Source: a virus. Taken from it: DNA of 36,457 nucleotides. The stretch lies in UHGV virus genome UHGV-0171044; one strand, written 5' to 3'. The notes below the pieces were generated by a model. It was not told the DNA's origin, did no database searches, and saw nothing but the letters and a program-made list of their open reading frames with translations. Below, piece by piece: positions 14,845-33,307 of the stretch (its first letter is position 1; each line of letters begins with the position of its first letter). The position numbers were made by a program, and so were the translations under genes.

Positions 14845-15029
14845 ACGCCACAATTCAAACGATACCAGAGCTTCTTATCCAGACACGAGGCAATCAGACC
14901 GAAGTGGCAAGGATGCTTTCCTGCGCAAGAGGAACAGTGCTCAAGTACAACCGAGACAGCAAAGGCGAGCGTCACGTAATAGTTAACGGCGTCCTGATGG
15001 TCAAACAGGGCAAGAGGGGAAGACGATGA
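14841..15029 (+). CDS. ninH: NinH
   Basis: YGNQTEVARMLSCARGTVLKY ... IVNGVLMV resembles lambda NinH. Confidence 0.75.
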   Translation: MNATIQTIPELLIQTRGNQTEVARMLSCARGTVLKYNRDSKGERHVIVNGVLMVKQGKRGRR

Positions 15030-15544
15030 GCATAAGAGAACTAAACCTCACCAAAGAACAGCACGATTGGCTGAATGGCTGGCTTGAACTGTGGGGCGCA
15101 TGGGTTTATTCAGGCCGCCTGGAAAAGCGCATGAGCAGCGTAATAGCGAAGTTCATGGAGAGCGTAGAGCCGGGAAGAGTTATGACAAGGCCAATGTGTA
15201 ATGATGATGATGGAATGTTGATTTCTCAGGTCGTCGATTCCGTCATGTACATTGACAAGAAAGCCTTTGGCATCCTCCTCAGCTACTACGCTCATGGTTC
15301 ATCTAAGCGAGCAATTGCATCCTACTATCACGCGACTGCAAAGCCACGCAAGATGTGTGGGCGTGGTGGCGAGGGATGGAGAAAACCTTCACTGGCAACC
15401 TGTAGAAACGAAATTGACGATATCCTGAAAGCGTCATTATTTGTTTTGTACCAACCAATGCAAAATGCTTTCAAAATGCGTAAACGTGTTGAGAAAGTTA
15501 AGCATGTTGCTGTTAAAAGTCTTGACATGCAATTATCCATTTAG
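15026..15544 (+). CDS. Q: late antiterminator Q (phage 21/82, QuuD-like type)
   Basis: LELWGAWVYSG ... RPMCNDDDGMLISQVVDSV resembles the QuuD-type Q family; immediately upstream of pR'/tR'. Confidence 0.8.
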   Translation: MSIRELNLTKEQHDWLNGWLELWGAWVYSGRLEKRMSSVIAKFMESVEPGRVMTRPMCNDDDGMLISQVVDSVMYIDKKAFGILLSYYAHGSSKRAIASYYHATAKPRKMCGRGGEGWRKPSLATCRNEIDDILKASLFVLYQPMQNAFKMRKRVEKVKHVAVKSLDMQLSI

Positions 15545-15551
15545 CCATAAT
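15522..15551 (+). promoter_or_regulatory. late promoter pR'
   Basis: TTGACA, 18-bp spacer, CATAAT at the 3' end of Q. Confidence 0.6.
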
Positions 15552-15560
15552 TAGAAGGTA

Positions 15561-15607
15561 AGCTGCCGTTAGTGACTCTTAAGTTGCAACGGTGGCTTTT
15601 TTTATTT
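15561..15607 (+). terminator. tR' terminator
   Basis: stem AGCUGCCGUU / AACGGUGGCU followed by TTTTTTTATTT. Confidence 0.6.
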
Positions 15608-15682
15608 GGGTCAGTCGTATAAAGGTCATTACGGAAGGCTGTTAACCTTCTTATCGTGGTTCGAGCCCACGCTGTCCCGCCA
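15608..15682 (+). tRNA. tRNA-Asn (anticodon GTT), folded by hand
   Basis: acceptor GGGTCAG/CTGTCCC (one T-T mismatch), anticodon stem GAAGG/CCTTC with loop CTGTTAA, T-arm CGTGG-TTCGAGC-CCACG, genomic CCA. Confidence 0.55.
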
Positions 15683-15687
15683 AACAT

Positions 15688-15763
15688 GCTGGTTTAGCTC
15701 CAATGGTAGAGCAGTCGCCTTGTAAGCGAATGGGTAGCGGTTCAAGTCCGTTAACCAGCACCA
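15688..15763 (+). tRNA. tRNA-Thr (anticodon TGT), folded by hand
   Basis: acceptor GCTGGTT/AACCAGC, D-arm GCTC-CAATGGTA-GAGC, anticodon loop CTTGTAA, T-arm AGCGG-TTCAAGT-CCGTT, genomic CCA. Confidence 0.7.
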
Positions 15764-15880
15764 TAACTGAGCCGTAGCCACTGGCTATCCTGAATTCATC
15801 AGTGATAGTTATGCTGCGGCCTTCTTTTTCCCCTTCCCAATATAAGAACTACGCAATCCGTTACTGGCGGAGGCGTTGCT

Positions 15881-16096
15881 ATGAAATCAATGGACAAAAT
15901 CTCAACTGGCATTGCCTACGGAACATCTGCTGGTAGTGCGGGATACTGGTTTTTGCAGTGGTTGGATCAGGTCAGTCCGTCACAGTGGGCTGCGATTGGA
16001 GTGCTTGGAAGCCTTGTGTTGGGTTTTCTCACTTATCTGACAAATCTGTATTTCAAAATCAGAGAAGACAGACGAAAGGCTGCGAGAGGTGAATAA
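15881..16096 (+). CDS. S: class II holin / pinholin (S21-like) with dual-start motif
   Basis: matches phage 21 S ([49 protein letters not shown]); Met1 and Met4 dual start. Confidence 0.9.
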
Positions 16097-16593
16097 TGCC
16101 TCCATCATTACGAAAAGCCGTTGCTGCTGCTATTGGTGGCGGGGCTATTGCCATAGCATCTGTGTTAATCACTGGCCCAAGTGGTAACGATGGTCTGGAA
16201 GGTGTTAGCTACATACCATACAAAGATATTGTTGGTGTATGGACTGTATGTCACGGACACACCGGAAAAGACATCATGCTCGGTAAAACGTATACCGAAG
16301 CAGAATGCAAAGCCCTCCTGAATAAAGACCTTGCCACGGTCGCCAGACAAATTAACCCGTACATCAAAGTCGATATACCGGAAACAACGCGCGGCGCTCT
16401 TTATTCGTTCGTCTATAACGTGGGCGCAGGCAATTTCAGAACATCGACGCTTCTTCGCAAAATCAACCAGGGCGATATCAAGGGCGCATGTGACCAGCTA
16501 CGTCGCTGGACATACGCTGGCGGTAAGCAATGGAAAGGGCTGATGACTCGCCGTGAGATTGAGCGTGAAGTCTGTTTGTGGGGGCAGCAATGA
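16096..16593 (+). CDS. R: SAR endolysin (lysozyme with N-terminal signal-anchor-release domain)
   Basis: Gly/Ala-rich N-terminal SAR helix ([20 protein letters not shown]) plus lysozyme domain; start overlaps the holin stop. Confidence 0.9.
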
Positions 16594-17027
16594 GCAGAGT
16601 AACCGCGATTATCTCCGCTCTGGTTATCTGCATCATCGTCTGCCTGTCATGGGCTGTTAATCATTACCGTGATAACGCCATCGCCTACAAAGAGCAGCGC
16701 GATAAGGCCGCATCCATCATTGCTGACATGCAGAAGCGTCAACGTGATGTAGCAGAACTCGACGCCAGATATACAAAGGAACTTGCTGATGCTAACGCGA
16801 CTATCGAAAGTCTCCGTGCTGATGTTTCTGCTGGTCGTAAGCGCCTGCAAGTCGCCGCCACCTGTGCAAAGTCAACGACCGGAGCCAGCAGCATGGGCGA
16901 TGGAGAAAGCCCAAGACTTACAGCAGATGCTGAACTCAATTATTACCGTCTCCGAAGTGGAATCGACAGGATAACCGCGCAGGTTAACTACTTGCAGGAG
17001 TACATCAGGACGCAATGCCTTCGATGA
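16590..17027 (+). CDS. Rz: Rz i-spanin
   Basis: N-terminal transmembrane helix then coiled coil; ATGA overlap with the endolysin stop. Confidence 0.85.
16789..16974 (+). CDS. Rz1: Rz1 o-spanin lipoprotein, embedded in Rz in the +1 frame
   Basis: lipobox LLVVSAC followed by a Pro-rich segment; nested entirely inside Rz. Confidence 0.7.
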
Positions 17028-17463
17028 TAGCGATAATTTTACTCATCATCCTTCACATCTGGCTCTGTAGACAGGGTGGTGATCACTTCTGGAGTGAATC
17101 CAGATTAAACATCTCATTGCTGATGCTTGAAGTTAAGCATATGGCGCGCGGTAAGGGGCTGCGTTGAGATAAGAGCCGGTTCATTCCAAAGCCCATCTAC
17201 GGGTGGGCTTGATAATGAAACCGTGATTTACATCCCCACAATCCGGGTATGTAAAAGATAGTTCAGGCGAGAACAGATTTAACTAAATCTGTGCACCACC
17301 AGTTACGGCAGTACAGCGAAACAACCCAAGCCAGTAAGTGGGGAAATAACACTGGCAGCCACTGAAAGATGAACCTCCAGCCTTATGGCAAAAAAGATTC
17401 TTTGTGGTGGCGGACTGATGGAAAGACATCCTAATAAAGCAACCACTCTACAGGGTCATAATT

Positions 17464-17844
17464 ATGAACGACCAGCAAATCGAAAAAGAAATCGTTGAAA
17501 AAGGCAAAACAGCCCCGCGAATCACTCCTCAGCACATCGAAGACGTGATTAAAAGCGAGCATTACTTTACTGCTTATGATGGACGTAATGGTGCCATTTC
17601 CAGCAACGAATATTGTGGAAGAGAAAAACCAGAAGAAGGCGATCGTGATTTATCACCATTGAAGTTGCTCACTTTCTGCGTACTGGTGCTGAAGAATGGC
17701 TTCACCGTTACCGGAGAGAGTGCCTGTGCAAGCCCGGAAAACTTTGATGCAGAAATTGGTCGGAAGATTGCCCGGCAGAATGCTGTAAACAAAATCTGGA
17801 TGCTCGAAGGTTACTTGCTGAAGCAGAAGCTAAGCGAACAGTAG
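17464..17844 (+). CDS. hypothetical protein
   Basis: 126-aa ORF upstream of the terminase genes; no family assigned. Confidence 0.5.
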   Translation: MNDQQIEKEIVEKGKTAPRITPQHIEDVIKSEHYFTAYDGRNGAISSNEYCGREKPEEGDRDLSPLKLLTFCVLVLKNGFTVTGESACASPENFDAEIGRKIARQNAVNKIWMLEGYLLKQKLSEQ

Positions 17845-17947
17845 TTATTACAAAAGCCATTCCCTACAGAGTGGCTTTGATAATGGCTTATACCCTACAC
17901 GGGATAACTTAACTGATATCCCTTTTAACGGATAAACGGAGCCAACA

Positions 17948-18190
17948 ATGGCAGAGATTATTCCCATGACTGAAGAACAGAAATTCCAGTTAGAGATTTA
18001 CAAGCTGGTCATGAACCAGAACGCAGCAGCAGAGGAAGCATTTCAGTTCATTGGCACTGACGAGCTGAAGCTTGAGCTATTCAAAATTCACTTCCAGTCA
18101 GGTGGCGCTAATTCAGATATCACGACCCGAACTATCGAAGCGGTGCGTAAATCGAAGGAAGCGTTAGACCTGTTCACCACCGGAGCATAA
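17948..18190 (+). CDS. hypothetical protein
   Basis: 80-aa ORF immediately upstream of terS. Confidence 0.5.
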   Translation: MAEIIPMTEEQKFQLEIYKLVMNQNAAAEEAFQFIGTDELKLELFKIHFQSGGANSDITTRTIEAVRKSKEALDLFTTGA

Positions 18191-18192
18191 AC

Positions 18193-18633
18193 ATGGCGCG
18201 CCCAACAAAGTATCAAGAGGCGTATGCCGAACAGGCACGCAAACTGTGCTTGCTGGGCTACACCGATGCAGAACTTGCTGATTTCTTTGAAGTCAGTGAG
18301 TCAACTATTAACAAGTGGAAGCTTGATTATCCTAAGTTTTCGGAGTCCATAAAAAAGGGTAAGGCCGTCGCTGATGCAGAAGTTAGTGACCGTCTTTATC
18401 AACGTGCTATGGGCTTCGTGGCTCCAGACATCGATATTCGTGTTATTGAAAACAGAATTGTCGAAACTCCGCTTGAGAAGTATTACCCGCCTGATACAAC
18501 CGCTGCCATCTTCTGGCTTAAGAATCGACAGAAGGATAAATGGCGCGACAAGGTTGATCATGAGCTAACAGGCAAAGACGGCGGCGCAATCCAGATTGAA
18601 ACATCACCGATGAGCACTCTGTTCGGAAAATGA
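18193..18633 (+). CDS. terS: terminase small subunit
   Basis: C-terminus TGKDGGAIQIETSPMSTLFGK matches Sf6-type small terminase as recalled; N-terminal HTH-like segment; overlaps terL start. Confidence 0.8.
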   Translation: MARPTKYQEAYAEQARKLCLLGYTDAELADFFEVSESTINKWKLDYPKFSESIKKGKAVADAEVSDRLYQRAMGFVAPDIDIRVIENRIVETPLEKYYPPDTTAAIFWLKNRQKDKWRDKVDHELTGKDGGAIQIETSPMSTLFGK

Positions 18634-33239: not shown

Positions 33240-33307
33240 AGTTGAAGCCCCAACTGCGGGAACAGTCAGGGCTTCGGTATCAACAAATCGGATTAGGAAA
33301 TATTGAC

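Follow-up and report, generated by a model that had tools for sequence, protein, structure and literature searches.

A modular, hairpin-bearing interval between the lysis and packaging genes of a P22-like phage

INTRODUCTION

What does a phage keep between its lysis and packaging genes where no gene is apparent? The question is raised by a 36,457-nt stretch of viral DNA (UHGV virus genome UHGV-0171044), referred to below as the window, in which the stop codon of the Rz gene (149 aa, PF03245) lies at 17027 and the next long ORF does not start until 17464. That ORF encodes 126 aa and belongs to the Gp49/Sf6-gene-66 family (PF13876, E = 3e-35). The 436 bp in between (17028-17463) had been singled out in an earlier note, made from the letters alone, as lacking any ORF of at least 60 aa on either strand; the explanations offered were a small RNA, a regulatory or packaging-related site, or what is left of an accessory gene after deletion. 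The ORF listing bears out the initial observation, the longest ORFs being of 50 aa (17015-17167, + strand), 48 aa (- strand), 47 aa (- strand) and 44 aa (+ strand).

The interval is the longest run in the window (36.5 kb) without an ORF of at least 60 aa in any frame; the runner-up, of 336 bp, contains tRNA-Asn and tRNA-Thr. As bare sequence the gap is not unusual (61% of shuffles of the 436-nt segment likewise have no 60-aa ORF), and its base composition is unremarkable except for an A>T skew. Only the 94% ORF coverage of the phage makes it conspicuous.

Here we report that this interval, the largest "empty" stretch of the phage, is made of recognisable conserved modules, and is neither a missed large gene nor a deletion scar. 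The explanation that we favour, and hold to be probable with some reserve, is that the interval is a transcribed, mostly untranslated joint between the lysis and packaging genes, whose hairpins serve both as RNA ends and as recombination joints.

RESULTS

Setting of the interval in a P22-like late operon

The order of features on the + strand is an antiterminator-like gene, two tRNAs, holin, endolysin, Rz/Rz1, the interval, the Gp49-family gene, a DUF2560 gene, small terminase and large terminase. This order, all on one strand, identifies the region as a late operon of the lambdoid, P22-like kind. A sar antisense RNA (RF00262) found at 33240-33306 (- strand, 71.6 bits) indicates a P22-type immI/ant region elsewhere in the phage, and fits the same assignment.

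The interval is 94.7% identical, over 100% of its length, to the region of genes 63-66 in Shigella phage Sf6, and 184 phage records contain the whole or part of it, most of them belonging to P22-like phages of Salmonella, Escherichia and Shigella. A 701-bp query made up of the interval and about 130 bp of each flanking gene (window 16900-17600) has a match in 3006 of the 5426 complete E. coli genomes, that is, in more than half; the E. coli copies number roughly 4,700. The features to which we refer below are as follows.

17015-17167, + strand: small ORF of 50 codons (47 codons from a second ATG at 17024)
17181-17218, + strand: H1, a two-tier hairpin, marked by its fold (-17.2 kcal/mol), covariation and breakpoints
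17219-17296, + strand: segment B, an optional spacer that folds into hairpins at 17227-17255 and 17273-17292
17297-17430, + strand: segment C, a conserved stretch without ORF, in 163 phage records at 90-99% identity
17431-17463, + strand: linker and ribosome-binding region of the Gp49-family gene, common to all close Gp49-bearing relatives
17464-17844, + strand: gene of the Gp49/Sf6 gene 66 family, present or absent in relatives
17846-17885, + strand: H2, a paralogue of H1 with the same two-tier fold and a GATAATG tail, directly 3' of the Gp49-family gene

A small ORF overlapping Rz

Where the earlier note had allowed for a conserved short protein-coding gene across the region, a putative one covers only 140 of the 436 bp. 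The small ORF has AGGA 4 nt upstream of its first ATG (17015), its second ATG (17024) overlaps the Rz stop codon as ATGA, and its predicted N-terminus is hydrophobic. Its product matches phrog_11822 over the full length (residues 1-50 of 50, E = 3.2e-37), and equivalents are annotated as Sf6 gene 65 (AAQ12250), as gp67 of epsilon34 and, by PGAP, as "hypothetical protein". There are 62 relatives in the protein database, all close (73-96% identity), and those with a source name come nearly all from E. coli; the database search found no distant relatives, and a search of Pfam and NCBIfam found no family.

Of 36 distinct DNA variants, 32 keep the full 50-codon ORF, the others including truncations, an extension and read-through fusions. 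At five related loci (L036, L037, L038, L044 and L055) the gp65-like ORF has lost its stop codon and continues into a downstream gene, giving a fusion product of 172 aa. The pattern of substitution gives no clear signature of purifying selection: 13 changes are synonymous and 25 non-synonymous, against 28% synonymous expected under neutrality (p = 0.24), and diversity at codon positions 1, 2 and 3 is 0.040, 0.008 and 0.019, so that position 1 varies more than position 3. The DUF2560 gene of the same loci, used as a control, has a normal pattern (0.031, 0.018 and 0.102). Taken as a whole, the annotated small ORF is a putative gene for a small membrane protein, plausibly coupled to Rz.

A two-tier hairpin maintained by compensatory changes

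Past the small ORF, the earlier note had pointed to a GC-rich inverted repeat, AGCCCA and TGGGCT, not followed by a U-tract, and both points hold. The two halves lie at 17190-17195 and 17204-17209 on either side of TCTACGGG (17196-17203), and the repeat extends to arms at 17180-17195 and 17204-17219. The letters that follow it are TTGATAATG, not a T-run, and a terminator scan (at least 5 T in 8 nt) made no call on the + strand for this hairpin, H1, or for H2.

RNA structure prediction, which the note had proposed as a check, gives a two-tier fold for H1 and further hairpins beyond it. The outer stem pairs 17181-17185 with 17214-17218 (flanks CATT.. and ..AATG), and the inner stem, which holds the inverted repeat, pairs 17189-17197 with 17202-17210; it has 9 bp and is G+C-rich (AAGCCCATC/GGTGGGCTT), and the fold including the outer stem amounts to -17.2 kcal/mol. 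The 296-nt spacer as a whole has a fold z of -3.15, to which H1 and the two hairpins of segment B contribute. The only other copy of the hairpin in the window is H2, 668 bp downstream; both carry the tail GTGG(G)CTT(T)GATAATG.

Among 90 related loci we found 40 distinct versions of the hairpin, of four stem types. When the structure is laid on an alignment of 27 versions, 98% of the cells are paired, and 8 of the 15 pairs have changed on both sides. The double changes occur in both tiers, for example as A-U/G-C/G-U series. None of 500 shuffles matched this pairing, and sliding the partners reduced it to 35-50%; since the set mixes paralogous and orthologous, related sequences, the shuffle test overstates significance and is not a calibrated probability. 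The counts are nevertheless good evidence for a maintained structure.

The hairpin is also strand-asymmetric. Owing to G-U pairs, the + strand fold is the more stable one in 24 of 27 variants; it averages -17.6 kcal/mol, as compared with -13.8 kcal/mol for the - strand. This bias points to selection on the + strand transcript. As to the regulatory site that the earlier note had entertained, the structure of H1 is conserved and shows covariation, which makes a cis-acting role of the RNA plausible.

A stem of this kind might instead be a genuine intrinsic terminator of the lysis-gene transcript, with the spacer separating two transcription units. The record of epsilon34 annotates the orthologue of H1 as a Rho-independent terminator, and the 9-bp G+C-rich inner stem stands about 20 nt past a stop codon. 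However, the letters that follow the stem do not reach 5 T within 8 nt, and they are taken up in pairing, forming part of the outer stem; the label in the epsilon34 record is therefore not supported by the sequence, the U-tract being missing. Neither is there a promoter-like site downstream from which transcription of the terminase and head genes could restart: a scan of 16500-18300 for sigma-70-like sites found none on the + strand, although this is a consensus scan and weak or non-sigma-70 promoters could escape it. The late genes of P22-like phages, moreover, form a single operon that depends on gp23, a Q-type antiterminator. We consider termination at H1 in this sense quite unlikely.

Hairpins at mosaic joints

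To place the hairpins in their genomic context, window 16900-17900 was compared with 86 related loci and the breakpoints of homology were mapped. Homology to the window ends at 17185-17230, within or just past H1. It resumes at 17182-17187, as a second copy of H1 after an insert, at 17288-17305, the left edge of segment C, or at 17844-17847, that is, at H2; all right-hand junctions are at 17430. Relatives without 17190-17846 join segment A straight to an H2-type hairpin, and this block is missing in many relatives. The hairpins coincide with mosaic joints, and by this comparison H1 is a module boundary and an insertion hot spot.

Segment B, immediately past H1, is itself variable. About 58 bp of it are absent from the short form, carried by most relatives, and the distinct sequences comprise 10 of the long form and 22 of the short form. 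No record has an annotated gene under B.

Between gp65 and DUF2560 lie 311 to 1504 nt, depending on the locus. At least six families of cargo occupy the H1 position of relatives. The inserts encode Rha, either by itself or in fusion with ORF11CD3, a protein with a Tad2-like Thoeris anti-defence domain (PF11195), GIY-YIG/T5orf172, DUF551, and small unknown proteins. The Tad2-like cassette sits at the equivalent of window position 17190 (for example in L021 and L028), and phage Huey (PQ850609) has an annotated anti-CRISPR inserted at the H1 position. The joint between lysis and packaging genes thus looks like a hot spot for anti-defence genes.

The Gp49-family gene is a cassette as well, present in 12 of 90 related loci and closed by H2. 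A divergent allele of it (L009) shares only the last ~20 nt of the 33-nt linker. It may be, with low confidence, that the linker (17431-17463) descends from a boundary hairpin that has since degenerated, AAAGC..CCACTCTACAGGG..ATAATTATG; its likeness to H2 was judged by eye.

A different element was seen at the same hot spot in four related contigs, in which the int-alpA RNA motif (RF02996) scores above the gathering threshold (41-42 bits against 35.8), at L009 1048-1110, L016 2871-2933, L078 2872-2934 and L083 2262-2324. The motif lies about 13 nt downstream of segment C and is absent from the window; it is a candidate for a second structured RNA here.

The interval could instead be what an accessory gene, rha for instance, left behind on its deletion, as leftover DNA in decay with no function, much as the earlier note had proposed. 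Relatives do hold Rha, Rha-ORF11CD3, Tad2-like, GIY-YIG and further genes precisely at 17190|17182, and in P22 segment C starts immediately 3' of the rha stop codon. Blastx of 17168-17463 against all ORFs of the related loci nevertheless returned only trivial overlapping antisense ORFs and no cargo gene. The gene-less arrangement H1-C-hairpin is the minimal form and occurs in ten loci; the stems are kept by compensatory changes, and segment C is more conserved than coding DNA. The alignment with relatives, which the note had proposed as a check, shows a conserved region with accessory genes of relatives located exactly here; a gene remnant finds no support, and we regard it as very unlikely.

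Segment C and its homology to the P22 RNA P22G

Segment C is mostly free of overlapping annotation in the 163 records. There are two cases of apparent overlap with a gene. One is the stop codon of rha, which C directly follows in P22; the other is "orf118" of ST64T/L, an artificial N-terminal extension of DUF2560. Diversity over the same 34 loci is 0.0125 for C, whereas the small ORF has 0.022 and DUF2560 has 0.051 (0.102 when third positions are taken alone), and the last 45 nt of C are invariant in 24 distinct sequences. The conservation is real but not extreme, because identity between the window and P22 is 96.9% in segment C and 95.9% in the DUF2560 gene; recent spread by recombination could possibly account for the low diversity of C. 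In its "distant" mode, blastn of B and C found only matches of at least 90% identity.

No coding capacity of C that we considered holds up across relatives. Of the + strand mini-ORFs from ATG 17385 and ATG 17369, the first 15-21 codons are constant and the tails vary with the downstream context (18-45 aa); "orf118" of ST64T/L, taken as a gene, is the start of a C mini-ORF read through into DUF2560. A -1 frameshift heptamer, A AAA AAG (17388-17394), is in register with the 17385 mini-ORF and has the 17369 mini-ORF as its -1 frame (window 17385-17434); neither ORF is conserved, and the heptamer is probably there by chance. On the - strand, a mini-ORF of 19 aa (MAASVISPLTGLGCFAVLP) has a GTG start and a perfect Shine-Dalgarno sequence, GGAGGT, 10 nt upstream. 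The idea that this hydrophobic peptide (17303-17377) is a type I toxin was dropped: it has 19 aa at 25 of 46 loci and 20-100 aa at the others, and is frameshifted in P22. A - strand promoter candidate in C, read by hand, agrees with only 8 of 12 consensus positions and was likewise set aside.

Nor does C correspond to an established RNA family. Rfam gives nothing at gathering score within the interval. The best sub-threshold match is Proteo-phage-1 (RF03044) on 17297-17360 (+ strand), at 18.6 bits against a gathering score of 42. The matched stretch shares AAGCC.G..AGUG and GAAAUAACAC.GGCAGCC with the consensus; the stems of the model, however, are not formed in C, and non-standard pairs are flagged in both. 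RF03044 had no match at E <= 10 in the relatives, and none at the gathering threshold in 20 further loci. Motifs resembling its consensus, retrieved by a pattern scan of viral contigs, belong to other phages and have a Q-like gene on one side and the holin on the other. With its low score, its unformed stems and a different genomic position for the motifs, membership of C in Proteo-phage-1 was rejected.

A closer parallel comes from P22. A 2026 small-RNA-seq study of P22 infection described ten P22 RNAs (PMC13397905). One of these, P22G, has 204 nt, lies on the + strand at 21873-22076 of AF217253, and is listed with "no known function" (PMC13397905). Its abundance was 374-488 RPM in infected cells and vesicles (PMC13397905, Table 2); it is outside the two RNAs confirmed by RT-PCR, and its basis is RNA-seq reads alone (PMC13397905). 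Window 17297-17430, the whole of segment C, aligns with nucleotides 50-186 of P22G at about 96% identity, the mismatches being few and the indels two and small. The strand agrees, and so does the genomic position, between lysis and packaging genes. The two differ at both ends: P22G begins with 49 nt from the 3' end of rha, absent from the window, and its last 18 nt enter the 5' arm of an H2'-type hairpin, in place of which the window has the 33-nt Gp49 linker. The small-RNA option of the earlier note is thus partly supported, by the homology of 17297-17430, although the 3' hairpin of P22G is replaced here. The layout of P22G is the one expected of a late-mRNA fragment with a hairpin protecting its 3' end, and P22G may be a decay fragment.

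In P22 itself (L087, ~1727-2335), about 600 bp between orf25 and orf80 have no annotated gene. This gap contains, on the - strand, a terminator-like hairpin with a T-run, which was flagged as a weak Trp-leader look-alike.

It could be supposed, more ambitiously, that C is a dedicated gene for a trans-acting sRNA, the counterpart of P22G in an E. coli phage, which would base-pair with phage or host mRNAs, and that the spacer exists for its sake. The core of P22G is about 96% identical and on the same strand, P22G was detected at the abundance given above, and C is 3-8 times less polymorphic than the neighbouring coding DNA, with its 3' 45 nt invariant. Against this, the + strand has no promoter-like site in the consensus scan, the 5' end of the P22 RNA lies within rha sequence that is missing here, and its 3' hairpin has given way to the Gp49 linker. 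C alone does not fold unusually well (z = -0.34), and its longest complementarity within the phage is 12 nt, inside the shuffled range of 10-15. It is also divisible, in that SPN3UB-type phages keep only the first ~55 nt. P22G, finally, has no RT-PCR validation. On balance we regard a trans-acting sRNA gene as unlikely.

A last reading takes the interval as a site in DNA, either an accessory to packaging (pac or cos) or a target for a DNA-binding regulator. It lies just upstream of the terminase genes, it has palindromes (17273-17292 and H1), and the invariant end of C could bind a protein. Yet in P22 and Sf6 pac is inside the small-terminase gene, and the segments are found with different packaging systems: they occur also in lambdoid siphoviruses of the cos type, at a distance of about 1 kb from cos, and in a wide variety of contexts. 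The strand asymmetry that G-U pairs give to the hairpins favours RNA over duplex DNA, and the whole 17190-17846 block is dispensable in many relatives. The packaging site suggested in the earlier note finds no support in these comparisons, and we hold a DNA-site function of either kind to be highly improbable.

DISCUSSION

Our analysis suggests that the interval is the joint of a P22-like (Lederbergvirus-type) late operon, which would share its + strand transcript with the late genes. What the comparisons show is the anatomy, the homologies, the map of breakpoints, and the covariation and strand bias of the hairpins. We infer the transcription, as well as any effect of the hairpins on the RNA, and the functions proposed below for the modules are likewise conditional. 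The interval would consist of four conserved, separately exchangeable modules: the small ORF, H1, B and C. The small ORF would be coupled to translation of Rz through ATGA and, if translated, would yield a small membrane protein. H1 would be a member of a family of two-tier RNA hairpins that trail each accessory cassette. B would be an optional spacer with two more hairpins, and C a leader-like untranslated stretch, which in P22 would accumulate within an RNA of about 200 nt that ends in the next boundary hairpin.

The hairpins may act at two levels. On the late transcript they could protect 3' ends, direct processing or cause weak termination, with antiterminated polymerase reading through. 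As DNA, they could provide short homology for the gain, loss and swap of Rha, Tad2-like, GIY-YIG, DUF551, Gp49 and other cassettes.

A stronger version of this model is possible, although doubtful. The hairpins (CATTAC-stem-loop-stem-GATAATG) and segment C would together form a conserved RNA system of the late operon in lambdoid phages, in which the hairpins are specific signals for processing or stabilisation that divide the late transcript into defined pieces, one piece (C, as P22G) is a functional phage sRNA, and the hairpins also serve as exchange joints for anti-defence and regulatory cassettes such as Tad2-like, anti-CRISPR and Rha genes. If the hairpins were processing or stability signals and C a functional RNA, there would be an extra post-transcriptional layer in the late operon, which is usually treated as a single simple read-through transcript. 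The same RNA roles, if true, would provide a handle for locating accessory-gene cassettes in prophages.

The interval is ordinary in kind, its modules being already annotated or recently reported in close relatives. Beyond what the earlier note had seen, the 50-aa ORF is a member of a recognised, annotated family, H1 has its paralogue downstream, and the locus is a mosaic hot spot. It marks a fixed point at which P22-like and other lambdoid phages exchange accessory genes, anti-defence genes among them.

The nearest known arrangement is that of Sf6, in which Rz, an overlapping 50-codon ORF, a hairpin, an ORF-less stretch and a Gp49-family gene follow one another in the same order. The difference lies upstream, where the lysis cassette of the window is of another type; homology to Sf6 and other relatives begins only at about 16900-16995, within the 3' end of Rz. 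By our reading the cassette (15026-16593) is phage-21-like, unlike that of Sf6. It comprises a holin of 71 aa and an endolysin of 165 aa whose N-terminus is hydrophobic, and is preceded by tRNA-Asn and tRNA-Thr.

The cassettes invite comparison with morons. Lambdoid morons with flanking terminators, and boundary sequences, are said to have been described by Juhala in 2000 and Clark in 2001. An 'ant moron' has been discussed in connection with lambdoid mosaicism (PMC2629481). Like morons, the genes at this locus are present or absent among relatives at one fixed point of the late operon, each being followed by a stem-loop; unlike them, the cassettes have no promoter-like sites in the consensus scan and the stem-loops no U-tracts. 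The hairpins also resemble the boundary sequences of HK620 and Sf6 in being short conserved sequences at mosaic joints, although the Sf6 record marks bsq7 inside gene 63 and none at these hairpins.

Finally, we note a parallel on the side of RNA. The early mRNA of phage T7 carries intercistronic hairpins that are processed by RNase III. There is no sequence similarity between these and the family of H1 and H2, and the likeness is by analogy only: in both, two helical tiers are split by a small internal loop, and the hairpin lies between genes of a polycistronic phage mRNA, has no U-tract and folds on the sense strand.
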